52,228 bases of DNA, from the NCBI GenBank assembly GCA_022360855.1, contig JAKSBY010000477.1, forward strand, positions 1 to 52,228, in the 5' to 3' direction. Of this stretch, positions 1 through 20,428 are shown one piece after another (position 1 is the first letter of the stretch; each line of letters starts with the position of its first letter). Made by a program: the position numbers and the translations under genes. The stretch is from Sphingomonadales bacterium. Its GTDB lineage: Bacteria; Pseudomonadota; Alphaproteobacteria; Sphingomonadales; JAKSBY01. The notes below the pieces were generated by a model. That model was not told the DNA's origin. It ran no database searches and saw nothing but the letters and a program-made list of their open reading frames with translations.

Positions 1-1
1 G

Positions 2-832: not shown

Positions 833-1070
833 GGGGTCGCTCTGGCGTCCGAAATGTCTATTCCGGAGAAAATCTCGGGCGCCTCGATTCTTCGAATAAA
901 AGATACGGGCTCATTTGTGGTGCTGGGACTTGCCTACAATCCGTCAAATCCAAGCTTGCGGATGATCGAAGCCTTGATTCAGGAGGCCGATCACGCATTC
1001 AATGTCGGGCCCAAATCGAAGTTGCGGTCTGCTTCCGACTGACGCGCACAAGCCATCCCTTGCCACTGAG

Positions 1071-1682: not shown

Positions 1683-2282
1683 TCAAATGGCGGTTGCACC
1701 ACCGTCGACGGCGAGGATCTGACCCGTAATGTGCCCACCCGCGTCAGAGACCAGGAGCAAGGCGGCTCCTTTCAAATCCTGATCGCCCCCGAGCTTGCCC
1801 AAGGGGATGTTGTCAAGGATGCGCGCGCCGGACTGATCCAGGATCACCTTTGCCATTTTTGACGGGAAATGGCCGGGCGCGAGCGCGTTCACCCTGATCC
1901 CGCGCGGCCCCCACTCCGCCGCGAGCGCGCGCGTGAAGTTTACGACACCGCCTTTTGCCGTGTTGTAGGCGATCGTCCCCGGCAATTCGTGATGATGCCC
2001 GCCAAGCCCCTCTATGGAAGCGATGTTCAGAATTGCGCCTTTTCCATGCGGCAGAAAACACCGTCGCGCGGCCGCCTGAGACAACAGGAACATAGCGGTT
2101 ACGTTCAGGTCGATAACTTTGCGCCACCCGTCGAGGGGATGATCTTCCGCCGGCGCCCCCCAGCTCGCACCGGCATTGTTGACCAGGATATCGAGGCCGC
2201 CATGCCGCGCGATCACTTCCTTTATGAGCACGTCCGCCGCTTCCGGATCGGCAAGACTGGCGGGAATGAAGTCGGCGCTCAC
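1683..2282 (-). pseudogene. Short-chain dehydrogenase/reductase lacking its N-terminal dinucleotide-binding segment
   Basis: It has LDILVNNAG, the catalytic YNTAKGG (YxxxK) and a C-terminal GQILAVDGG. The roughly 55 N-terminal residues carrying TGxxxGxG are absent. The frame opens only at GTG 2282, overlapping the stop of the upstream gene (GTGA). Confidence 0.65.
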
Positions 2283-3205
2283 GCCGCCAGCATGACAAGC
2301 GCAATACCCGTTCCCATTGTGCCGGCGCCGACAACGGCTATGCTGCGAAACTCCTGCGGATCGATTTCTTTTGGCAGCCCCGGGATACGCGAAACGACAC
2401 GTTCGCCGAAAAACGCGTGGCGCAGACCGAGCGATGCTTCCGACGCCATAAGCCTCTCAAACAATCGTCTTTCGATCACGCAGCCTTCATCGAACGACAA
2501 CCTCGCGGCCTCGACACATTCGACAATGCATCTCGCCGCCTCGCTTCTTTTGAGAATTTTTGCGTGCTTTGCTTTTGCGGCCTCGATTTCGGCCGCTGCT
2601 TCGTCTGCCAAAGGCCTTTCGTCCGGGCGTTGCGGCCCGCGCGCAGCCAAGGACCGCGCCGCGGCTAACGGATCTCCATCAACAACCACATCGACAAGGC
2701 CACAGTCACGCGCCTCCCGCGCGCTTATCTGATCGCCGCCGATCATGAGATCGATCGCCGCCGTCGCACCGATCAGCCTCGGCAGCCATTGTGTTCCTCC
2801 ACCGCCCGGCAGCAGGCCCAACGTTACCTCCGGCAACCCGAGTTTGGTAGAGGAATCGCAAAGACGATAGTGCCCTGCGAGCGCCAGTTCCAAGCCGCCG
2901 CCAAGCGCAACGCCGTGCATCGCCATAACGACGGGTTTCGACGCGCTAGAGATCAGGTCATTCAGCGCGCGAGTCTGATCGAGCTTCGCGGGATCACCGT
3001 CGAAATCCGCAATGTCGGCCCCAGCCGAAAAGCACCGCCCCTCCCCCTTCACCACGATCATCTCGACGGAAGGATCGGCAAGTGCGCTTCTGATTGCTTC
3101 CGTCAGTGCGGCGACGACGCCCTGTTGAACAGACAGGGCGTTGACCGGCGGATTTTCTATCGACGCGACCAAAGCGCCGTCAATGACACGGCTTGATACA
3201 GACAT
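2279..3205 (-). CDS. Enoyl-CoA hydratase domain protein; truncated FadB/FadJ-type bifunctional enzyme (3-hydroxyacyl-CoA dehydrogenase half missing)
   Basis: Crotonase motifs GEGRCFSAGADI and HGVALGGGLELALAGHYR are present. After about 285 aa the dehydrogenase Rossmann loop begins (IAVVGAGTMGTGIA), and the frame stops 6 codons later (..LVMLAA*). Confidence 0.7.
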   Translation of the reverse strand: MSVSSRVIDGALVASIENPPVNALSVQQGVVAALTEAIRSALADPSVEMIVVKGEGRCFSAGADIADFDGDPAKLDQTRALNDLISSASKPVVMAMHGVALGGGLELALAGHYRLCDSSTKLGLPEVTLGLLPGGGGTQWLPRLIGATAAIDLMIGGDQISAREARDCGLVDVVVDGDPLAAARSLAARGPQRPDERPLADEAAAEIEAAKAKHAKILKRSEAARCIVECVEAARLSFDEGCVIERRLFERLMASEASLGLRHAFFGERVVSRIPGLPKEIDPQEFRSIAVVGAGTMGTGIALVMLAA

Positions 3206-3229: not shown

Positions 3230-3988
3230 CTAAGCAGACCAGCCGTCATCGACCGCGATAACCGCGCCGTGGACGCCAACCGAATCTTCGCTCGCCAGGA
3301 AAGCTGCGGCGCCCGCGATGTCGTCCACATCCATAAAAGAGCGCCCGGTCGGCGTATTGTCGCTCATCAGCTTCATATAGTCTTCGTTCCCGGGCCCACG
3401 CAGATGCGCATTGATCGGCGTCGCGACATTACCCGGCGCGATGGCGTTGACGTTGATGTTCTCCTTGGCGAGCTCGGCGGCCAAGGCCCGCGTTAGGAGT
3501 GCGACGCCCCCCTTCGACGCACAGTAGGCGGGGCAGTTCGGGAAGGCCCCGATACCGGCGATCGAGCTCATGTTGATGACTTTTCCGCCACCCTGCTTTC
3601 GAAATATGGGCAGGGCCGTCTGGGTGCAGAAAAATACGCCCTTTAGATTGAGATCAATCTGCTGATCCCAGATTTCTTCGGTCGTTTCGGAGACGGGAAC
3701 CGTTTTGAACGTGCCGGCGTTATTGACGAGAATATCGATCCGGCCGAGCGTTTTTTCGATTTCCTGCATGAACCGGCGGATGTCGGACACGTTTGCGCAA
3801 TCGCCCTTGACGGCAATCGCTTTGCCGCCGTCGGATTCGATGTTCCGGACAACCTCATTCGCCGCAGCGTCATTGCGACTGTACACGATGGCGACGGTTG
3901 CGCCTTCCGCCGCATAGCGGTGCGCGATCGCCTCGCCTATCCCTTGAGATCCGCCGGTGACGACCGCCACTTTATCCTTTAGTCTCAT
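3230..3988 (-). CDS. SDR family oxidoreductase (3-oxoacyl-ACP reductase / glucose 1-dehydrogenase-like)
   Basis: 252 aa with TGGSQGIGEAIA, NNAG and YCASKGG (YxxxK). It lies 11 nt downstream of the hyuB-like gene. Confidence 0.9.
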   Translation of the reverse strand: MRLKDKVAVVTGGSQGIGEAIAHRYAAEGATVAIVYSRNDAAANEVVRNIESDGGKAIAVKGDCANVSDIRRFMQEIEKTLGRIDILVNNAGTFKTVPVSETTEEIWDQQIDLNLKGVFFCTQTALPIFRKQGGGKVINMSSIAGIGAFPNCPAYCASKGGVALLTRALAAELAKENINVNAIAPGNVATPINAHLRGPGNEDYMKLMSDNTPTGRSFMDVDDIAGAAAFLASEDSVGVHGAVIAVDDGWSA

Positions 3989-3999
3989 AAAAACCCTCC

Positions 4000-5712
4000 T
4001 TATGCACCGATCTCGACGCCGTAGACCGTCGCCGCACGCTCGCGGCTGACCCAGCCTTCCTCGACGTCGCGTATTACTTTTTCCCGGTCGCGCTCGCGCG
4101 GGTCGCCATATCCGCCGCCGCCGCAGGTAACGGCGACAACGGATTCTCCGCCTTTCAACCGAAGCACGCTGACTTGATCGACGGCTTGCTCCTCGCCGTC
4201 TACGGAGCGTTTATATTGTCGCGACGCTCCGCCGGCGCCGCCGCCGCGCACGCCCAGCGGCGCGTTGACCGTGCCGTCGCTCACGAATGCAACATCCACC
4301 TCACAGCCCACCGGGCCGAATTCGACTTCAAGGCTCGGCGCGCCGCGCAGCCTGCCCGCGCCTTCGGTATCTGGAAGCAATTTTCTGCTCATCACCCGGA
4401 TCGGCTGACACAATTCATCAAGCTCCACGCTGTCGATGAAGCAAAGCCCGCCATTGCCCGCATGGAGATAAGTCATCCAGGCGTCATTATGCGCCGTGGC
4501 CCCGCCGCCGGTTCCCCCCAGAAACAACTGGTTGATAAACGCCTTGCCGGTGCGCGGATCATGGCCGGACACGACCCCGCTCGAAGGCGAAAGCCCTGCG
4601 CCGACTTCCGCCATACCAATGCCCTCGGCAAGCGCGGCCAATGCGGCCTGCGTTGCCGCGCACACTCTGTCGGCGACATTGGTCGTTGCGGCGGAGCAAC
4701 TGGTGGGGTGATCGGGAATTCCGGCGATACACCCCTTACGCAGCAAGACTTCGACGCGCCGAAAGGCGCCTGCATTTTTGGGGACGCGATGGTCAATCGA
4801 ATTGAAAACGCCGATCAACGCGCTTGTGCGTGCGCAGGCTTCGCTGAGATTGAGCCCACAGGGAAGACAGTCCGGATTGTCGCGAAGGTCCACCATGATC
4901 CGGCCCTCCTTCGCGTCGACGTCGACTTCCGATTTGATAACGACGCCCTGTTCCGGTGTGCCGGGAATATGGTCATGAATGCTTGTCGCGAGGCTCGTTC
5001 CGGACGGTATCTCCGCAATCGCATCGATCATGCGCCTTTCGCTGTAATCGAGCCATTGCCTGACAAAAGCGTCGAGCTCGTCCCAGCCGATTTCTGCCGC
5101 CAATTGGAGGATTTCGCGCTCGCCGATACGAGCGGCGCCGAGCATCGCGAGAAAATCGCCCTTCCACTGCTCCGGCACGCGGATGCGCATTTCGCACATG
5201 CGCACGATGTCATCCTGCGTCTTGTAGTTTCCCTGGATCTTCACGGCAGGGAAAATCAGCGCGCCTTCCTCGTAAACGTCTTTCGCCGTGCCGTGATAGG
5301 TCGTCGGCAAGGAGTTTCCGATATCGGCCTGGTGCGCTTTGGCGACTACGGTGAAACGATGCGTGCCCTGATCGTCGATGACCGGCGCCAGAATCGTGTG
5401 GTCGGCGGGATGCGAACATCCGTGATACGGGGAATTGTGCAGGAAGGCGTCGCCGCGCCGTAATTCGGGATGAAAATCCAGCATGGACCGCGCCATCAGG
5501 TCCGGACCCGACAAAACATGAATCGGCAGGCTTTCCGCCGCCGCCAATAACTGACAGTCCGCCGTCACGATACAGGCCGAAAAGTCACGCGCGCGATTGA
5601 GCACGCCCGACCGGCCCGCCCGCAGCAGCGTATTCGCCATATTTCGCGCAACCCCCTCGAAGCGGTTGTTCAAAATGGCGAGCTGCGCACCGTCAAGGAC
5701 GTGTTCGGTCAT
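4000..5712 (-). CDS. Hydantoinase B / oxoprolinase family protein (HyuB-like), pair 1
   Basis: 570 aa with family-typical sequence along its whole length (LAILNNRFEGVARNMANTLLRAGRSGVLN.., SPYHGCSHPADH, GGGGYGDP near the C-terminus). There is an ATGA start/stop overlap with the upstream hyuA-like gene. Confidence 0.9.
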   Translation of the reverse strand: MTEHVLDGAQLAILNNRFEGVARNMANTLLRAGRSGVLNRARDFSACIVTADCQLLAAAESLPIHVLSGPDLMARSMLDFHPELRRGDAFLHNSPYHGCSHPADHTILAPVIDDQGTHRFTVVAKAHQADIGNSLPTTYHGTAKDVYEEGALIFPAVKIQGNYKTQDDIVRMCEMRIRVPEQWKGDFLAMLGAARIGEREILQLAAEIGWDELDAFVRQWLDYSERRMIDAIAEIPSGTSLATSIHDHIPGTPEQGVVIKSEVDVDAKEGRIMVDLRDNPDCLPCGLNLSEACARTSALIGVFNSIDHRVPKNAGAFRRVEVLLRKGCIAGIPDHPTSCSAATTNVADRVCAATQAALAALAEGIGMAEVGAGLSPSSGVVSGHDPRTGKAFINQLFLGGTGGGATAHNDAWMTYLHAGNGGLCFIDSVELDELCQPIRVMSRKLLPDTEGAGRLRGAPSLEVEFGPVGCEVDVAFVSDGTVNAPLGVRGGGAGGASRQYKRSVDGEEQAVDQVSVLRLKGGESVVAVTCGGGGYGDPRERDREKVIRDVEEGWVSRERAATVYGVEIGA

Positions 5713-7793
5713 GCCGCGGCCTTTCGTTCCATCAGGTCGATGACCAGACTACCGTCCTCGCGCCGCCAAAACGTCGACGCCTCGTCAACCAAAACGGTCG
5801 TAAAAGGCGACTCGACAACCGCCGGACCCGAATGGCGCTCCTCGGTTGTCATGGCAGCGAAGGAGACGACCTCTGCGGAGCATGCGCCCACTCCGGGGAG
5901 CCAGATGCTTCTCTCGCTCTTTCGTTCCGCGTCGTCCGTTTGCGCGGGAAGGCGGCCGATTATGTGATCATGCACGCGGCAGCTTGCGCGCACCGACCAG
6001 CCAATTATCTCGACGGCCGAGTGTTCATCGCGGAAACCGAAAATCCGTTCATGAGACCGATGCATCGCACCGACAAGCTCGGAAATCTGTTCCCCGCTCT
6101 CGAATAGTTCAAAGGCCAGAGGAACTTCGATTTCCCACACCTGTTGCTCGTAGCGCGCTTCGATCGAGTATTGGATGGCGGGATGATGGATGTCCGTTCC
6201 CACCCCATCCAGAAACGCATTGGCCTTCTCTTTGAGACGCGACAGGATGGCATTGGCTTCGTCCAGGTCGAAATCCCCTGTCGTCATGTACTCGACCGCC
6301 CGGTAATCTGCGGCGAGCTCGGACATGAGCGCTCCGGCAGCGCTGAGCGCCGGGCCCAATTCGGGAATGACGAGTCTCGGAATGCCGAGCCGGCGCGCGA
6401 TGAATATCGAATTCAGCCCCGCGGCGCCGCCACCGCCGATCAAGACCGCCTTGCGCGGATCGATGCCCTGGTTAACCGTTATATCCGCGATGGCTTGCAC
6501 CATGTTTTCGGTGGCCAATCTGACGACTGACAGCGCCGCGTCCTCAACGCTCATTGCCAGCGGATTGGCGATCTTCTCTTCGATACCGCGCCGCGCGCCA
6601 TCGAGATCGAGAGACATGGTTCCGCCGAGAAAATAGTTCGGATCGAGATATCCAAGAACGACGCAGGCGTCGCTCAAGGTGGGCTCCGTCCCGCCGCGCC
6701 GATAGCATATCGGTCCGGGATCCGCGCCGGCGCTTTTGGGGCCGACACGGAGCAATCCGCCGCTGTCGACTTGCGCGATACTGCCGCCGCCGGCGCCGAC
6801 ACTTTGTACGTCAACCGACGGAAATCCCGTTAGATGGCCGCGAAACGGCGCGCCGATCCATGCGTCCCGCGTCAACGGAATACGACCATCGCGCACCAGG
6901 CTGACGTCGTAGGTGGTGCCGCCCGTATCCGCAACGATAACGTCGGCATCCGGCATCGCCCTGCCGCTGAAATGCTTGCCCGCAATCGGCGCCAGGGACG
7001 GCCCGGAATTGATGGCGCGAATGGGCGCGGCCGCGATCTCGTCTGCATCGACCATGCCGCCTTGCGAGGTGAGTACAAGCAGACGCCCGTCGAAGCCTGC
7101 CTCATTGAGCCGCGACGAAAGGGATCCGAGATAGGCCCCCATCAATGGCTTTAAGGAGGCGTCGATCGCCGTCGCCGATGCCCGGCGAAACTCGCGGATC
7201 GTCGGATTCAAGACATGCGACAAAGTGTAGGGCGTGCCCGGCAGATGCTGCTCGATCAGTTCTCCTATCCTGAGCTCGTGCTCCGGATTCGCGACCGACC
7301 ACAACAAGCACACCGCCACGGCCTCAATATGTTCGCGACGCATCGCCGCACATATGTCGATGACGGTTGCGTCATCGAGGGGCGTGATAATCCTGCCTTC
7401 GGCGTCGATGCGCTCCGGTATCTCGTAGGTCAATGAACGGGGGACATACGGATCGGGATACGCAATCGTAAAATTAAACGGCTCCTGGCGCCCGCCTTCA
7501 CGCAAAACCAGCACGTCGGGATGACCTTCGGTAGTCAAAAAAGCGGTCTTCGCCGTCTTTTTTGTGATGACCGCGTTGATCGCGTGGGTCGTGCCGTGAA
7601 TGAATGTATCGACGCCGGCCAGGAACGCGCCGACCGATAAGCCTCGCGCCTCCGCCGCAAGCCTCGTCGCTTCGATAACACCGATGACGGGATCGTCGGG
7701 CGTTGTCGACGCCTTGAACATGTCGAGGTTGCCGGTGTCGTCCTCGACAATCAGGTCGGTAAACGTCCCGCCGGTATCGCAGGCGATTCTCAT
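5709..7793 (-). CDS. Hydantoinase A / oxoprolinase family protein (HyuA-like), pair 1
   Basis: The ORF-track frame extends to 7898. ATG 7793 gives the canonical N-terminus MRIACDTGGTFTDL (DxGGTFTD phosphate-binding loop) and sits 13 nt after the upstream stop. 694 aa. Confidence 0.9.
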   Translation of the reverse strand: MRIACDTGGTFTDLIVEDDTGNLDMFKASTTPDDPVIGVIEATRLAAEARGLSVGAFLAGVDTFIHGTTHAINAVITKKTAKTAFLTTEGHPDVLVLREGGRQEPFNFTIAYPDPYVPRSLTYEIPERIDAEGRIITPLDDATVIDICAAMRREHIEAVAVCLLWSVANPEHELRIGELIEQHLPGTPYTLSHVLNPTIREFRRASATAIDASLKPLMGAYLGSLSSRLNEAGFDGRLLVLTSQGGMVDADEIAAAPIRAINSGPSLAPIAGKHFSGRAMPDADVIVADTGGTTYDVSLVRDGRIPLTRDAWIGAPFRGHLTGFPSVDVQSVGAGGGSIAQVDSGGLLRVGPKSAGADPGPICYRRGGTEPTLSDACVVLGYLDPNYFLGGTMSLDLDGARRGIEEKIANPLAMSVEDAALSVVRLATENMVQAIADITVNQGIDPRKAVLIGGGGAAGLNSIFIARRLGIPRLVIPELGPALSAAGALMSELAADYRAVEYMTTGDFDLDEANAILSRLKEKANAFLDGVGTDIHHPAIQYSIEARYEQQVWEIEVPLAFELFESGEQISELVGAMHRSHERIFGFRDEHSAVEIIGWSVRASCRVHDHIIGRLPAQTDDAERKSERSIWLPGVGACSAEVVSFAAMTTEERHSGPAVVESPFTTVLVDEASTFWRREDGSLVIDLMERKAAA

Positions 7794-7806
7794 CGGCTCG
7801 TCCGCC

Positions 7807-9042
7807 CTAATTGCAAGGCTGGCGCAACGGCTGAGGGAGCGCGGACTGATCGATACCGAGCTTATCCGCAAGCCAGTCGCAGATATATTCCTGGCCAATG
7901 GTCGGATTATCGACCTGACAGTGCGCGGCGCCCGTTTCTTCGGTTGTGAAGACCTTGAAGGTTACGTCGAGCCCATGCTTCTGAGAGTATTCGTAGGATT
8001 CAACCGCAAACTGGAAACCGGCAAAATCGCACTCGCCTTCAACGATCAGGAAGGGACACCGGATTTGATGTTGGACTTCGTCCAGCCGAAACTCTTTGCT
8101 CTTTTCCAGCACCGCATCGAAACTATCGACGCCCAGCACCCATTTCAGGTGTCTGCTGGCGATGCGGTCCGCCGTATACTTGCCGTCCACAAGCGTCCGA
8201 TACAGATCGAACATGACACCGTCGCTCACAAGCGCCTTTAAGCGATGCTCGAACGCGGCCGCCCGCGGCGCGTAGTAACCGCCGAGACTCGAGCCATAAA
8301 GAGCGATGCGATCAGGATCCACATCATCGCGAGCCTGAAGGTAATCCACACAGGCACCGACCGGGACTTCCGTATCGACGCGGGCAGCCAATCTACGGCG
8401 GCGCAGGGTCGCTCCCTGCCCCGGCAGATCGACAAGCAGCAGGGATATGCCGCGTGGGAAGGCGTGTTTCGGCATTTCGTGGAGGAGCTCGTCCTTGAAC
8501 TCGTCGAGACCGCCGAAACAGATCACGACTGGGGCGCGTGCCTCAGAATATGGCGCGCGCAGAAAATAGGCGTCCATATAATCGTCATTATCGAAGGGCA
8601 CCTTTACAACCTCGCCTGCGGGCTCAAGGCGCTCCATATATTCTCGCGAACAGGCCTCCATCTTATCGAGCAGCTGCAGGCGGCGCTCGTCGTCGTGATC
8701 GAGGAAAAACTCGGCGGAACGATAGTAATTGGCCGCGCGCAGCCAATTCATCTTTGCCGTCGTCACATAGTTGGACGCGATTGCGTCCTTGGCCCGTTTG
8801 AGGTTTACGTCGCCGAGACGCGTCCACTCCCGATACCATGACTCATCATCGCCCGGCGTGATCCGCGCGCCGGCCTGAAAGCACTCACTGATGGTGCTTG
8901 CGCCTTCCTGAGCTGCGCCCAATGCACGCATGAATTGAAACGAGTAATCCGGATTGTCCGGCCATTGCATCCAACCGACGGGCTGGTATTCGCCTACCGG
9001 CTTCGTGGTGGCGTAGTTGGATGCTTCGGAAACGGTAGTCAT
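7807..9042 (-). CDS. Alpha/beta hydrolase with helical N-domain (FrsA / dihydropseudooxynicotine-hydrolase-like)
   Basis: ATG 9042 (MTTVSEASNY..) is preceded by GAGGGGGTGAG; the ORF-track start at 9165 is rejected. 411 aa. Nucleophile elbow GSSLGG in ..RIALYGSSLGGYYAP... The block PVVICFGGLDEFKDEL..LLLVDLPGQG resembles the FrsA-type core. Confidence 0.8.
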   Translation of the reverse strand: MTTVSEASNYATTKPVGEYQPVGWMQWPDNPDYSFQFMRALGAAQEGASTISECFQAGARITPGDDESWYREWTRLGDVNLKRAKDAIASNYVTTAKMNWLRAANYYRSAEFFLDHDDERRLQLLDKMEACSREYMERLEPAGEVVKVPFDNDDYMDAYFLRAPYSEARAPVVICFGGLDEFKDELLHEMPKHAFPRGISLLLVDLPGQGATLRRRRLAARVDTEVPVGACVDYLQARDDVDPDRIALYGSSLGGYYAPRAAAFEHRLKALVSDGVMFDLYRTLVDGKYTADRIASRHLKWVLGVDSFDAVLEKSKEFRLDEVQHQIRCPFLIVEGECDFAGFQFAVESYEYSQKHGLDVTFKVFTTEETGAAHCQVDNPTIGQEYICDWLADKLGIDQSALPQPLRQPCN

Positions 9043-9061
9043 AACACTCACCCCCTCGAGT

Positions 9062-10423
9062 TCATTTTTTGTCTCTATGCGGACTCGATTCCGATAGCGC
9101 GTTGTAGGCGCGCCTCGAAAGCGAGTAGAAAACCGCCGACAACGGCGCGCCGATCGCGACCACAACCGCGATGGATGCGCCGACCATCATTTCGTCTTTG
9201 AACAGATTATCGGTGATAAGCGCGACCAACGTCGGCCCGATCGCGTAACCGACGAGCGAGAGCACAAGCAGGTAGATTGCGTAGACCAGCCCGCGCATTT
9301 CGTTTGGCACGACGATCTGCAACGCAACGGGCGTCAGAGCGATCGCGGACGCAAGGCCGAACACGCCAACACCGGCAAGCACGAGCGACCAGAAGAAGGT
9401 CGGCGCAAAGGGCGCAAGAATCGCCGGAATGATGGCGAGCAGAACATAGCCACGCGCAACGACAATATGGGAATCCCTGAGCCCTCGGGCGGCGAGATGG
9501 TCGGCGAGCCAACCGGCCGTGACGAGCCCGCTGACGCCGCCGACGAGAACGACCAGGCCGTAGCCGCCGCCCACTTGGCCAGGCGTCAGCCCAAAATTTC
9601 GAATGAGAAAGGTCGGCATCCACGCGTGCAATGCCAAAACGGCAAGCCCGGCGAGCGCCGCGGCGGCAAAATGGGAAACAAAGAAGCGTTTGCGCAGAAA
9701 CATGAACGCAAGAACCTGCGAAATGGAGACAGCCGCCTGCCCGTCGGTGACGCGGCCCGTGCGCTTGGGCTCCCGCACAAGGGCAAACAGAAACGCCAGC
9801 GCCATTCCCGGCAGGCCGACCACAAAGAACGCCGCTTGCCATGGCCGGATTTCTCCGAGCAATGGAACGGTGATGGGCCCCATTCCCGAAACGTAGTCAA
9901 CGACCGCGCCCCCGAAAATGTAGGCGATGCCGGCGCCCGCCGAGCCTCCAATCGAGAAATATGCGATGGGACGCGCCAGTCTTTCCGGCGGAAAGTAATC
10001 GGCAATAAGGGAGTTCGCTGCCGGAGAAAGCCCTGCCTCACCGACACCGACGCCGACGCGAGCCAGAAACAGTTGGATGAAATTCGACGCCGCGCCGCAC
10101 AGTGCCGTCGCCAAGCTCCAGAAAAAGATGCTGACGCCGGCAATGGTACGTCGGCTGTAGCGGTCGGTCAGCCGCCCCATCGGCAGACCGACAACCACGT
10201 AGAGCAACGTGAAGGCCAATCCGTGAAGCAGGCTGATCTCGGTATCACTTAGGCCAAAATCCGCCTTGATCGGTTCGACCAGAAGCGTGAGGATCATCCG
10301 GTCGATCATTGAAAAAGTGAACGCAACCGTTAGCAGGCCAACGACACTCCAAGCGTAAACTTCACTTCTCCAAGCGAAGTCGGACTGCGAGGCTTCTTCT
10401 AAATTTTGAGCAGTAGGGTTCAT
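9062..10423 (-). CDS. MFS transporter
   Basis: 453 aa with about 12 hydrophobic helices. Motif A is GRLTDRYSRR after TM2. ATG at 10423. Confidence 0.85.
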   Translation of the reverse strand: MNPTAQNLEEASQSDFAWRSEVYAWSVVGLLTVAFTFSMIDRMILTLLVEPIKADFGLSDTEISLLHGLAFTLLYVVVGLPMGRLTDRYSRRTIAGVSIFFWSLATALCGAASNFIQLFLARVGVGVGEAGLSPAANSLIADYFPPERLARPIAYFSIGGSAGAGIAYIFGGAVVDYVSGMGPITVPLLGEIRPWQAAFFVVGLPGMALAFLFALVREPKRTGRVTDGQAAVSISQVLAFMFLRKRFFVSHFAAAALAGLAVLALHAWMPTFLIRNFGLTPGQVGGGYGLVVLVGGVSGLVTAGWLADHLAARGLRDSHIVVARGYVLLAIIPAILAPFAPTFFWSLVLAGVGVFGLASAIALTPVALQIVVPNEMRGLVYAIYLLVLSLVGYAIGPTLVALITDNLFKDEMMVGASIAVVVAIGAPLSAVFYSLSRRAYNALSESSPHRDKK

Positions 10424-10467
10424 TTCATCCCTAGGTTTGCGTTTTCATTTCGGTCATCAGGCCGAGT

Positions 10468-10501
10468 GCGGAGCGGGCCAGCCCAACACGTCCCGCTCCG
10501 C
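10468..10501 (-). terminator. Intercistronic GC-rich stem-loop between the TonB receptor and MFS genes (not followed by a T-tract)
   Basis: Perfect 10-bp inverted repeat GCGGAGCGGG (10468-10477) / CCCGCTCCGC (10492-10501) with a 14-nt loop. It lies 21 nt after the receptor stop. No U-run follows, so it is more likely an mRNA-processing or partial-termination element than a strong terminator. Confidence 0.4.
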
Positions 10502-10521
10502 CGCACGGCGATTGCTCCGGC

Positions 10522-12603
10522 TCAGAAGCGAGCCGAAACGGACCCGACGACCAAACGCGGCTGGCCGCGGCGTGCCAGAACGTCGCCGTCAAATGGCTGA
10601 AGTTCCGAATGATAGGCTTCGTCAGTCAGGTTTTCTCCGCGCACGGCAACTTCCCATCTTCCGTCAGGAGGAGAGATCGCAATGCGCGCGCCGAAAACAG
10701 CGTAGGAGTCCTGCTCCAGCGTGTTGATGGTGTCCCAGAAGAAAGCGGAGCTGTATGAAACATCGGCGCGCAGCGAAAGAACCAGCGAAGACGTGATTTC
10801 CGTTTCGTAATCAACACTGGCGCCGCCGGAGAAATCGGGCGCATACGGCACCTCGAAGCCGTCAAACATTCCCGCCGTGAACTTCGAGTCCATGACGCCG
10901 CCGTTAATGGTGAACGAAAGCTCGGCTACCGGGCGCACGGTCAGCGCGAACTCACCGCCGAATGTGCGCGCATCGCCGACATTGCCGATCGCCTCGTTCG
11001 GGACGCCGCTGGGATCAAGCACCAATGTTTCGAGCTGACGATCCTTGCTTTGGATAAAGAAGGCGGCAATTTCGTATGTCAGCAGGGCATTTGGGGTCTG
11101 TCCTTTTACACCCACTTCAAAATTACGCGCCTTCTCCGGCTCGTAAGGCAGCAGAGGCGTCGCATTGAACAGGGTGAATCGAGCGGGCTCATAACCTTCC
11201 GCCAGGTTGAAATAAACCATCACGGCGGGACCGACCTCATAAGAAAGCGTCAGCTTCGGCAGAACGACCGTATCTTTGACACTCAAGCTCTCGTCGATCA
11301 CCCGATTGAGCCCGAAGAAATCACTATGGTTCAGCCGGGCGCCCAACGACGCTTCAAATGGTCCGGATGAATAGGTTACCGTCGCAAACCCGGCCAGGAT
11401 TTCCTCAAGGCTGGTATTGTCGTGGAAACCCAGAATGAAATCCGGCGCGCCGCCGAAATCCGTACCGATAACAACATCCGCAGCCGTGTTCACGGGCAAC
11501 CGGTCGCGCAAGCGTGCGTAATAGCCGCCGACCAGCCAATTCCAGCCGTCGTCGAAATTCGACTGCAAGCGAACTTCCTGGGTAAACACCTTGGTGTCCA
11601 CCGGATCGGTCTGAAAGACCCAAACGCCATCCAGCGGGCTATAATCCAGGTCCCACAGGATTTCGCTTTTCCGTTCGGTGTAGGACGTCAACGACGTCAC
11701 TGATAAATCGCTGGTGACGTCGTGTTCTATGTTGAGAATCCCGGCTAGAATCCTGCGCTTGTTAAAGACGTCCAGGTTCAGATTCGATTCGAGCCTGAAT
11801 ACCGACGGCGACGGCGTCGTGTAGTAGTCGTTGCCGCCGTTCTCGAGATCGCTGTACCGAAAGCTCAGATTGACGTCGGTCGCGTCCGAAGGCGTGAAAC
11901 GGAGAGCCACCCGGATACCGTGTTCTTTTGACTTGTCGTTGTTGATACCGGTTACGTTGTTTTCCAGAAAGCCGTTATTGGTGTCGATATACCCGGAGAC
12001 CCGCGCCGCAAACATGTCCGACAGCGGAATGTTGATCGAGCCATTTCCGTTTTTGATTTTCTGTTGGCCGACCTCGATGGTCGCCTGCCCCTCAAATCCC
12101 TCCACCGACGGCTTTTTGGTGACATATTTTACCGCGCCACCAACGGAGCTGCCGCCATAAAGCGTGCCTTGCGGCCCTTTCAGCACCTCAATGCGTTCCA
12201 AATCGACAAGGCGGCTCGCCTGATCCGTAAAGTTCTGAACATCGTCGATATAAAAACCGATGCCCTGAACGTTGCCGAAGGACCCGACGCCGCGAATGAC
12301 GACGTTCGGCTCATTGTCGCCGCGGCGGCTCAGAACGACGTTGGGAACGGACAGTCCCAGCTTGTCGATATTGATGATGCTCCCTTTTTTGAGCGCATCT
12401 TCCGAGAAGGCACTGATCGTCTCCGGCACGTCGGTGATTGATTCAGCGCGCTTGCGCGCCGTAACGGTGATGCTATCAATGACGATAACCTCCCCCGCGG
12501 CTGCACCGTCATCCGATTGTGCAAGCGCGCTCGGACCGCTCGCAAACACCAAGGCGACAATACAAGAGCTTGTCAGCATCGATGTTGTCATGATTTTAGG
12601 CAT
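10522..12603 (-). CDS. TonB-dependent outer-membrane receptor (locus 1)
   Basis: 693 aa. Signal peptide ..FASGPSALA/QS, a TonB-box-like VIVIDSITVTA, and the plug motif IEVLKGPQGTLYGGSSVGGAV. A long barrel ends in a terminal aromatic (..SVSARF). AAGGGAGG precedes ATG 12603. Confidence 0.9.
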   Translation of the reverse strand: MPKIMTTSMLTSSCIVALVFASGPSALAQSDDGAAAGEVIVIDSITVTARKRAESITDVPETISAFSEDALKKGSIINIDKLGLSVPNVVLSRRGDNEPNVVIRGVGSFGNVQGIGFYIDDVQNFTDQASRLVDLERIEVLKGPQGTLYGGSSVGGAVKYVTKKPSVEGFEGQATIEVGQQKIKNGNGSINIPLSDMFAARVSGYIDTNNGFLENNVTGINNDKSKEHGIRVALRFTPSDATDVNLSFRYSDLENGGNDYYTTPSPSVFRLESNLNLDVFNKRRILAGILNIEHDVTSDLSVTSLTSYTERKSEILWDLDYSPLDGVWVFQTDPVDTKVFTQEVRLQSNFDDGWNWLVGGYYARLRDRLPVNTAADVVIGTDFGGAPDFILGFHDNTSLEEILAGFATVTYSSGPFEASLGARLNHSDFFGLNRVIDESLSVKDTVVLPKLTLSYEVGPAVMVYFNLAEGYEPARFTLFNATPLLPYEPEKARNFEVGVKGQTPNALLTYEIAAFFIQSKDRQLETLVLDPSGVPNEAIGNVGDARTFGGEFALTVRPVAELSFTINGGVMDSKFTAGMFDGFEVPYAPDFSGGASVDYETEITSSLVLSLRADVSYSSAFFWDTINTLEQDSYAVFGARIAISPPDGRWEVAVRGENLTDEAYHSELQPFDGDVLARRGQPRLVVGSVSARF

Positions 12604-12634
12604 TGAGAATACCTCCCTTTTACCGCCCGCCTTT

Positions 12635-12692
12635 CACGGATCGCTTGTTACGTATCCGTATCATGACTATTACGTATCCGTAAGTCAAGTGT
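12635..12692 (-). promoter_or_regulatory. Candidate promoter/operator of the TonB-receptor operon
   Basis: Direct repeat TTACGTATCCGTA at 12648-12660 and 12670-12682 (22-bp phase). An inverted ACGGAT half-site sits at 12636-12641. On the minus strand, TTGACT (12684-12689), a 17-nt spacer, then CATGAT. The 22-mer 12670-12691 matches 14491-14512 at 19/22. Confidence 0.4.
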
Positions 12693-12736
12693 GGAAAGGC
12701 ATTCCAGGCCGAGCGCCGCCGACTTCTGGCGGAAGC

Positions 12737-13498
12737 CTATTCTTCCCACTCAAGATTACCGCTCACGGAGATAAGTTCGCCGGTAATGTTCGGAACCGCT
12801 TCGGATGTCAAAAACAGGACCGTTTCCGCCAGCTCGGCCATCGAAACCTTTGAACGAGTGGAGATGTATTTCAGATAATCCCGTTCCAGTTCGGCGGTTG
12901 ACACGCCCTGATCCGCGGCCCGCTGCTCGATGATGCGTCGCATGCGATCATTGTCGATGATGCCCGGCAGAATTGCGTTGCATCGAATCCCGAAAACGCC
13001 GAGTTCCCGCGCGGCGTTCAGCGTCAAGCCCTCGAGCGCGAATTTCGAAGCAACATAGGCCGTTCGAAACGGAAGACGCGTACGCGTGGACGACGTTGAA
13101 AAATTGATAATCGCGCCACCGCCATTCTGTTTCATATGAGGAATGGAGTGCTGCATCGTGTAGAGAATGCCATGCACGTTGACGTCAAAAGTCTTGCGCC
13201 ATTCGGCGTCATCGAGCTCGTCGACCGGCGCCCGCGGTCCCGCAACGCCGACGCAATTCACCAGTGTGGTCAGCGGCCCTATCTTATCGGCCACATCCCG
13301 AAACATGCCCGCGACCGACGCAGCATCCGCGATTGACCGAACGGAGCCTGCCATGCCGGGATTGGCGGCCAGCGTCTCCGCCACGGCATCTTCGCGAATA
13401 TCGCAGATGTAAACGCGATCCCCGCGCGCGCGCATCTTTTCGGCGATCACGCGACCGACGCTGTCGCCCGCGCCGGTGATTAACGCTCCCTGGCCCAT
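12737..13498 (-). CDS. SDR family oxidoreductase
   Basis: 253 aa with ITGAGDSVGRVIA (Rossmann loop) and YVASKFA (YxxxK). It lies 15 nt downstream of the BKACE gene. Confidence 0.9.
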   Translation of the reverse strand: MGQGALITGAGDSVGRVIAEKMRARGDRVYICDIREDAVAETLAANPGMAGSVRSIADAASVAGMFRDVADKIGPLTTLVNCVGVAGPRAPVDELDDAEWRKTFDVNVHGILYTMQHSIPHMKQNGGGAIINFSTSSTRTRLPFRTAYVASKFALEGLTLNAARELGVFGIRCNAILPGIIDNDRMRRIIEQRAADQGVSTAELERDYLKYISTRSKVSMAELAETVLFLTSEAVPNITGELISVSGNLEWEE

Positions 13499-13513
13499 GA
13501 CCTGTTCGCCGCC

Positions 13514-14449
13514 CTAGAACGCCACGGCGTCGCCGCCTTTTAGCGACAGCATTTCGCGGGCCTCATCCGGTGAAGCCGTCTCGATGCCTAATTCTTCGAG
13601 GATGCGCTTTATCTTCGTCACTTGCTCGGCGTTGCCGGCCGCCAATCTGCCGCGCGAGATATATAGACTGTCCTCAAGCCCGACCCGGACGCTTCCGCCA
13701 AGCATCGCCGACATCGTGCAGAACCGCATTTGGTTCTTTCCGGCCGCGAATGTCGAAAGGTAATATTGATCGCCGAACAGGCCGTCCGCCACGGTCTGAA
13801 AATGTGCGAGATTGCGCAAATCAGGGCCGATACCTCCCAGCACGCCAAATATGCCCTGCACAAGAAACGGCGGCTTCGCCAGGCCGCGGTCTGCAAAATG
13901 GGCCAGCGTATAGAGGTGGCCTATATCGTAGCATTCATACTCAAATCGGGTATCGAACGCGTCTCCAACTTCGGTCAGGATCCGTTCGATATAGTAGTTT
14001 GTGTTGTACATGACCCGATCGTACGATCCGTCCACATACGGCTTCTCCCAATCATACTTCCATTCCTGCACGCGTTTCCCCGCCGCGGAATAGTCGAAGA
14101 TCAGCGGCCCCATGTTCAACGAACAAACTTCCGGCTGCGCGCGCTTCGGGGCCTCAAGCCGCTCATCGAGCGACATCAAATGGCTGCCGCCCGTGGTGAT
14201 GTTGACCACGGCCTTGGTGCTCTGCTTGATGCGCGGCAAAAATTCCATGAAAACGTCCGCGCTCGGCGTGGGGCTGCCGTCCGAGGGATCGCGCGCGTGC
14301 AAATGCAGAATCGCCGCTCCGGCCTCCGCCGCCGCGATCGCCTCCGACGCGATTTCGTCCGGGGTGATCGGCAAGTGCGGCGACATCGAGGGCGTGTGAA
14401 TGGAGCCGGTCACCGCGCAGCTAATTATTGCTTTACCTGTACGTGCCAT
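13514..14449 (-). CDS. Beta-keto acid cleavage enzyme family protein (BKACE, DUF849; 3-keto-5-aminohexanoate cleavage enzyme-like)
   Basis: The ORF-track frame runs on to 14992 through intergenic DNA. ATG 14449 gives MARTGKAIISCAVTGSIHTPSMSPHLPITPDEIA..AAILHLHARDP, the typical BKACE start and metal-ligand region. 311 aa. Confidence 0.85.
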   Translation of the reverse strand: MARTGKAIISCAVTGSIHTPSMSPHLPITPDEIASEAIAAAEAGAAILHLHARDPSDGSPTPSADVFMEFLPRIKQSTKAVVNITTGGSHLMSLDERLEAPKRAQPEVCSLNMGPLIFDYSAAGKRVQEWKYDWEKPYVDGSYDRVMYNTNYYIERILTEVGDAFDTRFEYECYDIGHLYTLAHFADRGLAKPPFLVQGIFGVLGGIGPDLRNLAHFQTVADGLFGDQYYLSTFAAGKNQMRFCTMSAMLGGSVRVGLEDSLYISRGRLAAGNAEQVTKIKRILEELGIETASPDEAREMLSLKGGDAVAF

Positions 14450-14450
14450 T

Positions 14451-14512
14451 ACCGTATTTCCGTTATCCTTACCGATCCGAAAGTAAGTCATTACGGATCG
14501 GTAAGTCAAGAG
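14451..14512. promoter_or_regulatory. Candidate shared operator in the divergent BKACE / XRE-cupin spacer
   Basis: Perfect 12-bp inverted repeat CTTACCGATCCG (14468-14479) / CGGATCGGTAAG (14494-14505) with a 14-nt spacer. GTAAGTCA is repeated at 14483-14490 and 14501-14508. Minus-strand TTGACT at 14504-14509 lies 55-60 nt upstream of the BKACE ATG. Confidence 0.45.
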
Positions 14513-14572
14513 ATGAAGGATTGCATGCGGCGACCAGGCTGTGCAACAATTCGGGGTTGAAAGAAGCAGAGC

Positions 14573-15286
14573 ATGAAGCAGGCGGCTGGGAAGGTAAGGA
14601 AAGCGAAAACAGTCGCGAGCGGCCCCGCAAGAGAACGGGTCGCTTGGCGCCGCGACGCCAAGGATCAGCACGTCACGGGCCGCTTGGGCGAACGCATTCG
14701 CGCGCATCGTGAACGGCTTGGACTGTCGATTAGCGCAGCAAGCGAACTGACGGGCATCCCGGGGGCATCTCTGTCGCGTATTGAAAACAACAAAATGTCG
14801 CCGACATTTCCCGTCTTGCTGAAACTCATGACGGGCTTGCGCCTGCCCTGGGCCGAATTGATGTCCGAATCGGAAATCGCGTCGCCGGGAAAAGACGAAA
14901 TAAGCATAGATTCGCCGATCGCCGCCAAACATGCCGATCTGCCGGGCTACGCCTATTCCGTCCTTCACATGGATAGTCCCCACCGACAACATTTTCTGCC
15001 AATGGTCACTGACGTACTGGCGACAACAATCGAGGAAGCGGGTGGGCTACGAGGGCACGAGGGCGTTGAGTTCTGCTACGTTTTGAGCGGCACTTTGCAG
15101 GTCCACTTCGAAGGCCGTCCGACGCAGGAGTTGCCGAAAGGAGCGAGCGCTCTGTTCAACTGCGAAATACCGCATGCCTATGTCAGCAAAAAAAGATCAA
15201 AAACGACTATTCTGATCATTGTCGTTACCGATCCGCTTGCCCACGACATCAGCGAAGAACCGTTCAGACGGCGAACGACGGAATAA
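14573..15286 (+). CDS. XRE-family HTH transcriptional regulator with C-terminal cupin domain
   Basis: 237 aa. HTH_3 region LGERIRAHRERLGLSISAASELTGIPGASLSRIENNKMSPTFPVLLKL. Cupin-like C-terminal half (..GVEFCYVLSGTLQVHFEG..ALFNCEIPHAY). The exact start is uncertain. Confidence 0.85.
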   Translation: MKQAAGKVRKAKTVASGPARERVAWRRDAKDQHVTGRLGERIRAHRERLGLSISAASELTGIPGASLSRIENNKMSPTFPVLLKLMTGLRLPWAELMSESEIASPGKDEISIDSPIAAKHADLPGYAYSVLHMDSPHRQHFLPMVTDVLATTIEEAGGLRGHEGVEFCYVLSGTLQVHFEGRPTQELPKGASALFNCEIPHAYVSKKRSKTTILIIVVTDPLAHDISEEPFRRRTTE

Positions 15287-15433: not shown

Positions 15434-15907
15434 ATGGCCTATCTGACCGAACGCCGCATCGGCTACAAGCGCGTAGTAGAAACGGCCTCACTCGATCAAG
15501 CAATCACCATAAAAACCGGCCAGGCCCCTGCCATCAAGCCCGATAGAGAGGCCTTGAAAACCACATTGGAGCGCGCGGGCTATCCGGAAAGAGCTGACAG
15601 CGAAACTGTCCAGCCGCTCAAAGCCATTTTGATCATCACCGCCATGACCTTGCTGTCAGCGATTACCTATGGACCCGCCGCAGCGCTGCTGGTCGAAATG
15701 TTTCCTGCCAATATGCGCTATACGTCAATCTCCATCCCCTACCACTTCGGCGCTGGCTATGTCGGCGGGTTCTTGCCCTTACTGCTCGTAATAGAAACAG
15801 GCAGCATCTACGCCGAGCTTTACTACACGATCGGCGTTCCGATCATCGCCCTGGCGGTTTCACTGGCCTTTCTGCCGGAGACCAAAGACCGCGATATGAT
15901 GGTCTGA
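15434..15907 (+). pseudogene. C-terminal fragment of an MHS-type MFS transporter
   Basis: Only the last ~100 residues look transporter-like: ..ITYGPAAALLVEMFPANMRYTSISIPYHFGAGYVGGFLPLLL..LAFLPETKDRDM. This is the metabolite:H+ symporter C-terminus including the PETK motif. No upstream helices are present in any frame between 15287 and 15600. Confidence 0.55.
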
Positions 15908-15925: not shown

Positions 15926-16780
15926 TCAGTCCGCGAAAACCACGGTCTTGGTGTCGTTGGCGATGATGCGGTGTTCCAGGTGGTAGCGGACAGCTCTGGC
16001 AAGCACCCGGCATTCTATCTCCCGCCCTTTCCGGATGAGTGCCTCAGGGGTGTCGGCGTGGCTGATGCGCTGGACGTCTTGCTCAATAATCGGGCCTTCA
16101 TCAAGGTCAGGCGTCACATAATGCGCCGTTGCGCCGATCACCTTCACGCCGCGTTCGAATGCCTGATGATAGGGCCGCGCACCCTTGAAGCTGGGCAGGA
16201 AACTGTGATGGATGTTTATGCAATTGCCTTTCAGCGCTTGAGACAGGCTATCGGAGAGAATCTGCATATAGCGTGCGAGAACCACCAGTTGTGTGTCGGT
16301 GTCTTTGACGAGCTTTAGCAGTGCTTCTTCCTGCGCGGGCTTGGTCTCCTTCGTTACCGGCAAATGGTGAAACGCAATATCTCCAAAATCCAGACCGCGA
16401 AATGTTTCAATGGGGTGGTTTGAAACAATAGCCGTAATCTTCATAGGCATTTCGCCAATGCGCGAGCGATAGAGCAAATCTGCCAGACAATGATCGAATT
16501 TGGACACCATAATCAAAACCCGGGTCGGCTCCGCACGGCTGCGTAGGGACCAATCCATGTCAAGCGTTTTGGCGACTTGAGCGAAGGCGGCCTTAAACGC
16601 AGCGATATCGCTGTCAATCCGAAAGAGAACACGCATGAAAAACCGGTGGCTTACGGGGTCGTCGAACTGCTGGGCTTCAAAAATATCACCGCCAAACTCA
16701 ACCAGTTTCGTGGACACCTGCGCCACAATGCCAGGCGCGTTGGTGCAAGATAGAACCAACGCGTACTCATGTGTGTTCAT
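15926..16780 (-). CDS. purU: Formyltetrahydrofolate deformylase
   Basis: ATG 16780 ([23 protein letters not shown].., ACT domain), 284 aa. The formyltransferase core has [11 protein letters not shown] and [16 protein letters not shown]. The longer ORF-track frame to 17068 would overlap the upstream gene by about 300 nt. Confidence 0.9.
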
Positions 16781-17285
16781 GCGGAAAATGCCTTTCTTGA
16801 AGGGTCTTATGATGTTCAAGCCAGCCGTTAAAAGACATGCCGTAACTCGCTGGGACGCCAGCGGCCAACCTTTCCGGCGCATTGCGCCAAAGTAGGACGG
16901 GGATATGATCAATGACCGTGGCCGCTGCAGTGCCAACCGGGAAAGCTTCTTCACGCAGATCAACCGCTGTGCCGGCGGCCAGGATCTCACGCGCGTGTTT
17001 GATTGGCAGCAGAAAAACCGCCCTGGCATGGGACTGATTGGACACCGGAGTATGATCCGGGGGATCAAAGCGGCCCAAAATCAGCCACTGATCACGGCCT
17101 GTCCATATAATGCTGTGCGTGCGGTTAGAGGCCGTGCCGCCGACTTCAGGCATGGTAAGGCCCGTCTGCTCCCTAACGATAGGCGCGAGGACGCCCCGCG
17201 GCGCGAAGGCCATTTGGGCATTATCGATCATCAGCAGCGGATAGGCTGGTTCGGAAACAAGCGGGGTTTTGCCAAGATCAGACAT
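16767..17285 (-). CDS. mgdD: N-methylglutamate dehydrogenase / sarcosine oxidase family, gamma subunit (SoxG-like)
   Basis: 172 aa from ATG 17285 ([10 protein letters not shown]..). It overlaps the alpha-subunit stop by 8 nt and the purU start by 14 nt. Size and position match SoxG/MgdD. Sequence conservation in this family is weak, so the call is largely positional. Confidence 0.75.
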
Positions 17286-20426: not shown

Positions 20427-20428
20427 GG

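Follow-up and report, generated by a model that had tools for sequence, protein, structure and literature searches.

A HyuA/HyuB pair co-conserved with a triacetate-lyase-type beta-keto acid cleavage enzyme in a candidate catabolic regulon of a Sphingomonadales bacterium

A cluster of nine genes, here called locus 1, was analyzed in a 52,228-nt stretch of DNA (the window) from a Sphingomonadales bacterium (assembly GCA_022360855.1, contig JAKSBY010000477.1), which originates from coral-reef metagenomes. [quoted passage not shown] All nine genes lie at the coordinates proposed in an earlier note on this DNA, and their open reading frames and families agree with Pfam and NCBIfam profile matches. 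The starts proposed there for HyuA, the hydrolase, and BKACE match the N-termini of homologues, whereas the longer mechanical open reading frames do not. Gaps of -4 to 98 nt in the minus-strand array were reproduced when recomputed from the coordinates. The array is tight and co-directional from the receptor onward, as described before, but it does not end at 3230 and instead runs on to a glutathione S-transferase (GST) gene at 1071. The nine genes and the control elements between them are as follows.

14573-15286, plus strand: regulator with an XRE-family helix-turn-helix (HTH) and a cupin domain (HTH_31/HTH_3 and Cupin_2)
14469-14504: operator pair upstream of BKACE, two 14-nt TTAC-N6-GTAA boxes
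13514-14449, minus strand: BKACE of the triacetate (3,5-dioxohexanoate) lyase type (BKACE family, 318 bits; NF053538)
12737-13498, minus strand: SDR2, predicted NAD-dependent 3-hydroxy-acid dehydrogenase (adh_short)
12648-12688: promoter (TTGACT-17-CATGAT) and operator pair (two TTAC-N6-GTAA boxes) upstream of the receptor operon
10522-12603, minus strand: TonB-dependent outer-membrane receptor (plug and beta-barrel domains; N-terminal signal-like sequence)
9062-10423, minus strand: major facilitator superfamily (MFS) inner-membrane transporter of the anion:cation symporter (D-galactonate) type (MFS_1; TIGR00893)
7807-9042, minus strand: cytoplasmic FrsA-like alpha/beta serine hydrolase (PF06500)
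5709-7793, minus strand: HyuA, ATP-binding (ASKHA) subunit (Hydantoinase_A with N and C domains; Hydant_A_N)
4000-5712, minus strand: HyuB, metal-site subunit (Hydantoinase_B, 394 bits); its start overlaps the hyuA stop by 4 nt
3230-3988, minus strand: SDR1, predicted NADPH-dependent keto-reductase (adh_short)

The BKACE had been presented as a generic beta-keto acid enzyme. Its family assignment held, while the generic description gave way to an equivalog-level match to triacetate lyase. The protein scores 479.6 bits against NF053538 (3,5-dioxohexanoate:acetyl-CoA acetone transferase; cut-off 430), and the match is full length (protein residues 1-311, model positions 1-310). Residues His49, His51, and Glu259 are invariant in a BKACE alignment, and we take them to be the zinc ligands, as in the structure of Kce. 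The NF053538 activity is taken to be that of the published triacetate acetoacetate-lyase, the last enzyme of phloroglucinol breakdown (PMC10470551). Matches in the PDB include 3e02 (416 bits) and BKACE15 of P. denitrificans (8RIO; 325 bits), which is promiscuous among neutral C5-C6 beta-keto acids and is reported to accept 3,5-dioxohexanoate, 5-hydroxy-3-oxohexanoate, 3-oxohexanoate, and 3-oxopentanoate (PMC11961710). Ile17 stands at the position of Glu14 in Kce, the lysine-fermentation enzyme, where it is the amine-binding residue, and of Trp16 in CsTAL (reference residues from PMC10470551). The sequence thus places the enzyme in a neutral-pocket, triacetate-lyase type. Because of the NF053538 match, the isoleucine at the Kce Glu14 position, and the substrate range of BKACE15, the predicted substrate in vivo is a neutral C5-C6 beta-keto acid, with triacetate as the best-supported candidate.

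HyuA has 286 relatives in a search across one genome per species, of which the best 80 (54-74% identity) were examined as related loci. Four additional genomes (L085-L088) came from a separate class-wide search. Orthologues of SDR1 (58-77% identity) are directly downstream of HyuB in 46 of the 80 related loci, and HyuA-HyuB-SDR1 is a conserved triad. The full arrangement of XRE, BKACE, SDR2, receptor, MFS, FrsA-like hydrolase, HyuA, HyuB, SDR1, and GST recurs in Exilibacterium. All nine gene types are present but rearranged in L085 (MFS, FrsA-like hydrolase, receptor; XRE; SDR1-HyuB-HyuA; SDR2, thioesterase, BKACE), and L087 carries, in one direction, a cupin regulator, receptor, EstB-like esterase, SDR, MFS, BKACE, HyuA, HyuB, and SDR. 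The earlier note had suggested a check of synteny, and the block proved to be conserved in other genomes in varying gene orders. Its proposal of one functional unit agrees with the recurrence of the BKACE-SDR pair, receptor and MFS, serine hydrolase, HyuAB, SDR, and XRE-cupin regulator in L005, L035, L085, and L087.

Triacetate-lyase-type BKACEs (60-76% identity) lie beside the HyuAB family in L013, L038, L066, L072, L085, L086, L087, and L088. Nine HyuAB-linked BKACEs, that of the window included, match NF053538 at E <= 1e-129, which is roughly its cut-off. Loci linked to BKACE are spread over several separate subclades of the HyuA tree, and SDR2-like genes (39-57% identity) travel with BKACE in L013, L038, L057, L072, L084, L085, and L087. 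Among 401 genomes of the window's class, BKACE was found in 79 (a tally that counts in the unpublished genome G240, on which nothing else here depends) and HyuA in 22. BKACE is also carried by 14 of the 21 other HyuA-positive genomes, compared with 79 of 401 overall, and the two genes are adjacent or within ~1.6 kb of each other in four of the 14 co-carrying genomes. Class-III aminotransferases are found beside HyuAB in loci without BKACE (L006, L007, L078, and L061), which hints at an amine product of HyuAB in those lineages.

Several further patterns were seen in this comparison. The receptor-MFS-hydrolase-HyuAB-SDR1 block (3230-12603) shares 61-80% identity with its counterpart in the gammaproteobacterium Exilibacterium (L005 and L035). 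The best HyuA matches in the 401-genome sample reach 62% at most, and those genomes show the two-paralogue pattern of marine alphaproteobacterial metagenome-assembled genomes (MAGs). The window BKACE is closest to genomes other than Exilibacterium (L013 and L085). Locus 1 looks mosaic, possibly as a result of transfer between classes. A second paralogous set is present in many marine alphaproteobacterial MAGs (group-B loci, L044-L076; for example, L046:8365-16822) and is composed of an XRE-cupin regulator, a PcaD-like hydrolase, HyuA, two to three HyuB-like frames, an EstB-like esterase, and an SDR, adjoining a sugar-type ABC transporter. A 4HBT-type thioesterase gene lies between SDR2 and BKACE in L085 (11747-12229, plus strand); its product bears a weak resemblance to the carnitine 3-dehydrogenase thioesterase domain and suggests that the BKACE-made acyl-CoA is hydrolyzed there and not passed to a thiolase. 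The L085 neighbors encoding a glycine C-acetyltransferase and a Zn-dependent alcohol dehydrogenase (probably threonine dehydrogenase) were considered as pathway genes and judged to be an unrelated kbl-tdh-type pair.

The regulator has an N-terminal HTH_3 and a C-terminal Cupin_2 domain, and its best NCBIfam match is PuuR, below the cut-off (50.6 bits vs 211). Orthologues (45-52% identity) are found in the Exilibacterium and Sphingopyxis loci, and XRE-cupin genes flank HyuA in the group-B marine loci too. At both promoters of locus 1 the box starts are 22 nt apart (12648 and 12670; 14469 and 14491). The distal box on the BKACE side adjoins a TTGACT -35-like hexamer, and the receptor-side pair overlaps the promoter-like TTGACT-17-CATGAT at 12688-12660. 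An operator common to both promoters had been proposed before and was borne out by these paired boxes, which are conserved across genera: the four 14-nt boxes give nine strand-wise matches, compared with 0.34 expected by chance. Beyond the two promoters, the 4.5-Mb assembly holds one other match, a near-perfect operator-like palindrome (TTACGCATCCGTAA) on contig C601 (1812-1825); it was considered as an extra regulon member and, being a single box inside a coding region, dismissed as probable chance. The two Exilibacterium genomes (L005 and L035) have paired boxes between XRE and BKACE and also upstream of the receptor gene, and two Sphingopyxis genomes have single boxes beside the genes for XRE, receptor, and HyuA; the boxes are absent from the other related loci. 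We infer that the conserved boxes are the phylogenetic footprint of a regulon under the XRE-cupin protein, whose binding to them is predicted and which is a probable repressor of both transcription units.

These data bear on whether the BKACE-SDR2 unit and the receptor-to-SDR1 unit could be independent cassettes that became neighbors by chance. Such an origin would fit the two separate promoters, the different BKACE or none beside the nearest HyuAB relatives, and the mosaic block, in which HyuAB, the hydrolase, MFS, and receptor are nearest to Exilibacterium and BKACE is nearest to L013 and L085. It is nonetheless highly improbable. The operator pairs are common to both units and conserved across genera, BKACE lies beside the HyuAB family in at least nine loci with varied arrangements, and BKACE is enriched in HyuA-positive genomes.

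In SDRs, a basic residue or serine after beta-strand 2 marks the NADPH type and an aspartate marks the NAD type. SDR1 orthologues conserve a Y-[S/K]-[R/S] signature after this strand, and SDR2 has an NAD-type aspartate (VYICD). By these rules, SDR1 looks NADPH-dependent and SDR2 looks NAD-dependent. Among its top solved relatives, SDR1 shows no specific similarity to a phloroglucinol reductase. SDR2 had been named as the partner of BKACE, and this role stands; SDR1, an apparent NADPH-dependent reductase, is also integral to the pathway.

The hydrolase matches PF06500 at 50.6 bits (cut-off 22), has a GSSLG nucleophile elbow at residue 250, and lacks a signal peptide. Its best solved relatives, all distant, are SMU_737 (77 bits), 2,6-dihydroxy-pseudo-oxynicotine (DHPON) hydrolase (70 bits), and Ayg1/AntI (40 bits), consistent with an esterase, a lactonase, or possibly a C-C hydrolase. 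Orthologues were identified in Exilibacterium (73% identity), L078 (59%), and L085 (29%). A serine hydrolase of one kind or another (FrsA-like, hormone-sensitive-lipase type, PcaD-like, or beta-lactamase-fold EstB-like) is found beside HyuAB in most loci examined. This swapping of serine-hydrolase families suggests a required step, of ester or lactone type, for which enzymes are easily recruited. The best NCBIfam subfamily of the MFS protein is TIGR00893 (D-galactonate/anion:cation symporter; 122.7 bits, below cut-off), and its orthologues (58-62% identity) adjoin the receptor. Receptors that are 63-65% identical adjoin MFS in Exilibacterium and Sphingopyxis; L085 has a 37% identical receptor, and L087 has another.

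The triacetate-lyase assignment raises the possibility that phloroglucinol or a triketide is broken down by an aerobic pathway variant. SDR1 would then be phloroglucinol reductase-like, the serine hydrolase or HyuAB would open the ring to 3-hydroxy-5-oxohexanoate, SDR2 would make triacetate, and BKACE would be the triacetate lyase. Removal of acyl groups from polyketides of the acylphloroglucinol type may be a further task of the FrsA-like hydrolase. In addition to the equivalog match of BKACE, the redox steps agree with PGR (NADPH) and TfD (NAD(P)+) in number and direction, and the pathway is reported in marine alpha- and gammaproteobacteria (PMC10470551). We would also expect algal phloroglucinol derivatives at a coral-reef source. 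The relatives of the hydrolase include the retro-Claisen C-C hydrolases DHPON hydrolase, Ayg1, and AntI, but these similarities are weak (40-77 bits). Opening of dihydrophloroglucinol is ATP-free, so this route would leave HyuAB, the best-conserved genes, without a role. Moreover, the window has no PF04199 cyclase-family gene (the four genomic copies are on other contigs in unrelated contexts), TfD is a 3-hydroxyacyl-CoA-dehydrogenase-family protein and not an SDR, and SDR1 has no special similarity to a solved phloroglucinol reductase among its top matches. We consider this route quite unlikely. A canonical phloroglucinol cluster elsewhere in the genome was looked for through the PF04199 copies and rejected on their contexts; the one examined lies beside genes for FPP synthase and a TlyA methyltransferase.

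The HyuA motif set (DxGGTxxD, DxGGT, and GxxPGP) and the HyuB metal tetrad were used as defined for caprolactamase (PMC8453981). HyuA has its two phosphate motifs at residues 6 (DTGGTFTD) and 289 (DTGGT) and its adenosine motif at 356 (GADPGP). In HyuB, Asp43, His100, Asp103, and His126 fall at the aligned positions of CapB's metal ligands (Asp41, His99, Asp102, and His124), whereas the vicinal Cys410-Cys411 of CapB is not conserved. By alignment, the ATP and metal sites of HyuAB therefore appear intact. Among PDB entries, HyuA scores highest with CapA (396 bits), followed by N-methylhydantoinase (348), ApcC (270), and AcxB (200). HyuB gives the same ranking, with 194 bits to CapB, 138 to N-methylhydantoinase, 92 to ApcD, and 23 to AcxA. 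In the NCBIfam search, caprolactamase and acetophenone carboxylase models alone matched HyuAB, all far under cut-off: the caprolactamase equivalogs NF050156 and NF050157 were not passed (537.6 bits for CapA and 252.2 for CapB; cut-offs 1000), and HyuB scored 84.7 bits against the ApcD equivalog (cut-off 1500). Housekeeping orthology to 5-oxoprolinase or N-methylhydantoinase was rejected, as no NCBIfam equivalog was passed and N-methylhydantoinase (PDB 7hk5) scores below caprolactamase. A housekeeping role of HyuAB, which the earlier note had named as evidence that would speak against its proposal, was looked for and not found by NCBIfam. These comparisons place HyuAB as an uncharacterized superfamily member that appears nearer to the hydrolytic branch of ATP-dependent lactamases and hydantoinases. 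The target ring may be of the lactam or hydantoin type, judging from the closeness of HyuB to lactamases, the two-subunit format, and the aminotransferase neighbors in a few loci.

The main rival places HyuAB as a two-subunit, ATP-dependent methyl-ketone carboxylase. An ester would be hydrolyzed to a secondary alcohol, which an SDR would oxidize to a methyl ketone; carboxylation would yield a beta-keto acid that BKACE converts to acyl-CoA and acetoacetate, with no need for a CoA ligase. From their chemistry, all four BKACE15 substrates (PMC11961710) would be carboxylated forms of butanone, 2-pentanone, acetylacetone, and 4-hydroxy-2-pentanone, and the BKACE gene directly abuts hyuA in L086, L087, and L088, as consecutive steps would. 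HyuAB has its superfamily, ATP motifs, and metal tetrad in common with the acetone and acetophenone carboxylases, and caprolactamase itself is bicarbonate-dependent (PMC8453981). The HyuB scores given above run the other way, however, falling from CapB through ApcD to AcxA, and HyuB has the length of a lactamase (570 aa; CapB, 581) and not of a carboxylase (684-776). The tightly packed operon leaves no room for a gamma- or epsilon-type small-subunit gene, the NADPH-type SDR1 points to reduction and not alcohol oxidation, and a TonB-dependent receptor with an anion-type MFS transporter would be unexpected for small neutral ketones or alcohols. Taken together, we regard the carboxylase as unlikely.

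A broader statement covers both chemistries: HyuAB may represent an activity not recognized before in the hydantoinase/oxoprolinase superfamily and coupled to BKACE chemistry, either as an ATP-driven ring opener or as a minimal two-subunit ketone carboxylase. We put this forward tentatively, with some doubt. As an opener, one possibility is that it acts on a resonance-stabilized aza- or oxa-analogue of phloroglucinol or triacetic acid lactone, for example 2,4-dioxopiperidine, 4-hydroxy-2-pyridone, or a tetramic-acid-type ring. The other possibility, carboxylation, would hand the beta-keto acid product straight to BKACE.

Locus 1 combines its gene content and motifs with co-conservation and an operator shared across two transcription units. 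Our preferred interpretation, in which we place about even confidence, is that it forms one XRE-cupin-controlled catabolic regulon through which a cyclic compound is imported, opened with ATP, and cleaved by BKACE to acetoacetate and an acyl-CoA. The compound is probably small, cyclic, and anionic or ester-masked, and its ring is most likely a resonance-stabilized, lactam-type or beta-dicarbonyl-derived C6 ring. We infer each chemical step and the substrate class as follows. The TonB-dependent receptor and the anion-type MFS transporter would import the compound, and the cytoplasmic serine hydrolase would remove an ester or open a lactone. NADPH-dependent SDR1 would reduce a ring carbonyl, with loss of resonance stabilization. 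HyuA would use ATP to phosphorylate an enol or iminol oxygen, and the HyuB metal site would open the ring, most likely a lactam or cyclic amide, by hydrolysis. The resulting 3-hydroxy acid would be oxidized to a 3-oxo acid by NAD-dependent SDR2. With acetyl-CoA, BKACE would then convert the 3-oxo acid to acetoacetate and a CoA thioester two carbons shorter; for 3,5-dioxohexanoate, the thioester would be acetoacetyl-CoA. The sequence of reduction, opening, re-oxidation, and cleavage follows from a reductase tied to HyuAB and a dehydrogenase tied to BKACE. This order mirrors the phloroglucinol pathway (PMC10470551) and suggests, by analogy, that an ATP-dependent opener replaces the cyclase-family hydrolase. 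Of the earlier interpretation, the joint unit and shared operator were upheld, and the lactam or hydantoin ring is a candidate.

Several points weigh against this regulon scheme. Opening of a lactam would leave an amine, yet neither an aminotransferase nor a deaminase is encoded in the window, and in the BKACE pocket an isoleucine takes the place of Glu14 of Kce, an amino-substrate enzyme. The BKACE step is not universal, because Exilibacterium, with the closest HyuAB (73-80% identity), has another BKACE, which is Kce-like, 31% identical, and short of the NF053538 cut-off, and the Sphingopyxis locus has none. Four unrelated serine-hydrolase families stand in the place of the hydrolase across lineages, and the SDR cofactor assignments come from sequence rules. 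Finally, the related genomes are kin, so that the counts overstate independence, and those from the 401 genomes are descriptive.

The HyuA-HyuB-SDR triad is common in genomes of marine Alphaproteobacteria, and many MAGs hold two paralogous sets. The orthologous regulon is carried by two cultured strains, Exilibacterium tricleocarpae R142 and Sphingopyxis panaciterrae DSM 27164. Together, the triad, the triacetate-lyase-type BKACE, the operator, and the cultured carriers offer a testable pathway in place of an anonymous "hydantoinase" annotation. A lactam, pyridone, polyketide-type ring, or ketone, if it turns out to be the substrate, would give the ATP-dependent hydantoinase/carboxylase superfamily a new reaction and BKACEs a new physiological role, and it would point to a route for an unaccounted class of marine dissolved organic compounds. 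If the coupling of HyuAB to BKACE is true, it would imply a widespread marine route that ends in acetoacetate, whether HyuAB is an opener or a carboxylase.

Downstream of SDR1, the minus-strand array continues with three genes.

2279-3205, minus strand: truncated fadB/fadJ-like gene (ECH_1/ECH_2), with an enoyl-CoA hydratase domain and the first residues of the dehydrogenase Rossmann motif
1683-2282, minus strand: SDR fragment without the N-terminal cofactor-binding motif (adh_short_C2)
1071-1667, minus strand: beta-class GST, operon tail gene (GST_N and GST_C)

The gap between SDR1 and the fadB/fadJ-like gene is 24 nt, and the latter overlaps the SDR fragment by 4 nt. The fadB/fadJ-like product aligns to FadJ positions 23-328 of 708, and its frame stops just past GAGTMG, the first glycine-rich motif of the dehydrogenase domain. 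In the SDR fragment, the adh_short_C2 match begins at profile position 45 (the first ~45 residues are gone), and no glycine-rich motif was found upstream in any frame. Together, the two fragments have the look of a deletion junction in the operon tail, near 2280; neither has a counterpart in the related loci. The top PDB matches of the GST are bacterial beta-class GSTs. Its orthologues follow SDR1 in Exilibacterium (58-60% identity) and Sphingopyxis (44-45%), and a GST gene follows HyuB in L088. The operon probably extends downstream as far as the GST gene at 1071. Farther downstream (1-1070, minus strand), an MFS-like frame is broken by stop codons and is probably a transporter pseudogene.

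The other side of locus 1, just beyond the regulator (15926-25928, minus strand), holds purU, genes for a four-subunit dehydrogenase resembling sarcosine oxidase, one glutamine-synthetase-like gene, and three that are glutamate-synthase-like. This gene set is that of the N-methylglutamate route of methylamine use, and no related locus shows the same adjacency. Its position here would make sense if the locus-1 substrate bears an N-methyl group, as in an N-methyl lactam. The intervening orf157 (15434-15907) was considered as an acetone-carboxylase gamma-like subunit and rejected, as it has no Pfam or NCBIfam match and no homologue in related loci.

A second receptor and HyuA/HyuB pair in the window (locus 2, 32266-38667) had been described as a second copy of the architecture of locus 1 and as a possible recurring module. 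A TonB-dependent receptor does adjoin the pair, as at locus 1, but locus 2 has other accessory genes and another regulator and represents a separate family. The two loci are distant paralogues, with 33% identity for HyuA and 26% for HyuB, and when the HyuA tree is rooted on the locus-2 sequence, a long branch parts it from the entire locus-1 family. The case for a recurring module within the window is accordingly weak.

In full-text literature searches, no paper turned up in which hydantoinase or oxoprolinase genes are linked to a BKACE/DUF849 enzyme. The anaerobic phloroglucinol pathway of Clostridium scatologenes and Collinsella (PGR, DPGC, TfD, and TAL; PMC10470551) ends in the same BKACE subtype, and its cluster likewise has one NADPH-type SDR, one NAD-type dehydrogenase, an MFS transporter, and a regulator. 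Locus 1 differs in that it lacks a cyclase-family ring hydrolase, uses an SDR as its dehydrogenase, and adds HyuAB, a serine hydrolase, a TonB-dependent receptor, and a GST. For caprolactam and valerolactam catabolism, Pseudomonas jessenii (CapAB) and P. putida (OplBA) have two-subunit enzymes of the same size (PMC8453981, PMC6061476), with the ATP motifs and the metal tetrad, and caprolactamase is the best relative of HyuAB among solved structures. The caprolactam cluster includes a class-III aminotransferase, which also occurs in some related loci such as that of Sphingopyxis. However, the caprolactam route proceeds through an aminotransferase and an aldehyde dehydrogenase where locus 1 has an SDR and BKACE, and the CapB vicinal disulfide is absent from HyuB. 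Acetone and acetophenone carboxylases (Acx and Apc; PMC5214803) share the superfamily, ATP-dependent enol phosphorylation, and a beta-keto acid product of the class used by BKACE, but they require extra small subunits, and their HyuB-type subunits are much larger and distant (23-92 bits). The oxidative 2-deoxyribonate operon of Pseudomonas simiae (bioRxiv 10.1101/205583) contains, like locus 1, a lactonase or esterase, an SDR that forms a 3-keto acid, a BKACE giving acetoacetate and an acyl-CoA, anion-type MFS transporters, and a local repressor. It has no HyuAB or receptor, its BKACE substrate is a polyhydroxy acid, and the likeness is one of gene type. Each enzyme family at locus 1 is known, and the closest described systems share part of its scheme.

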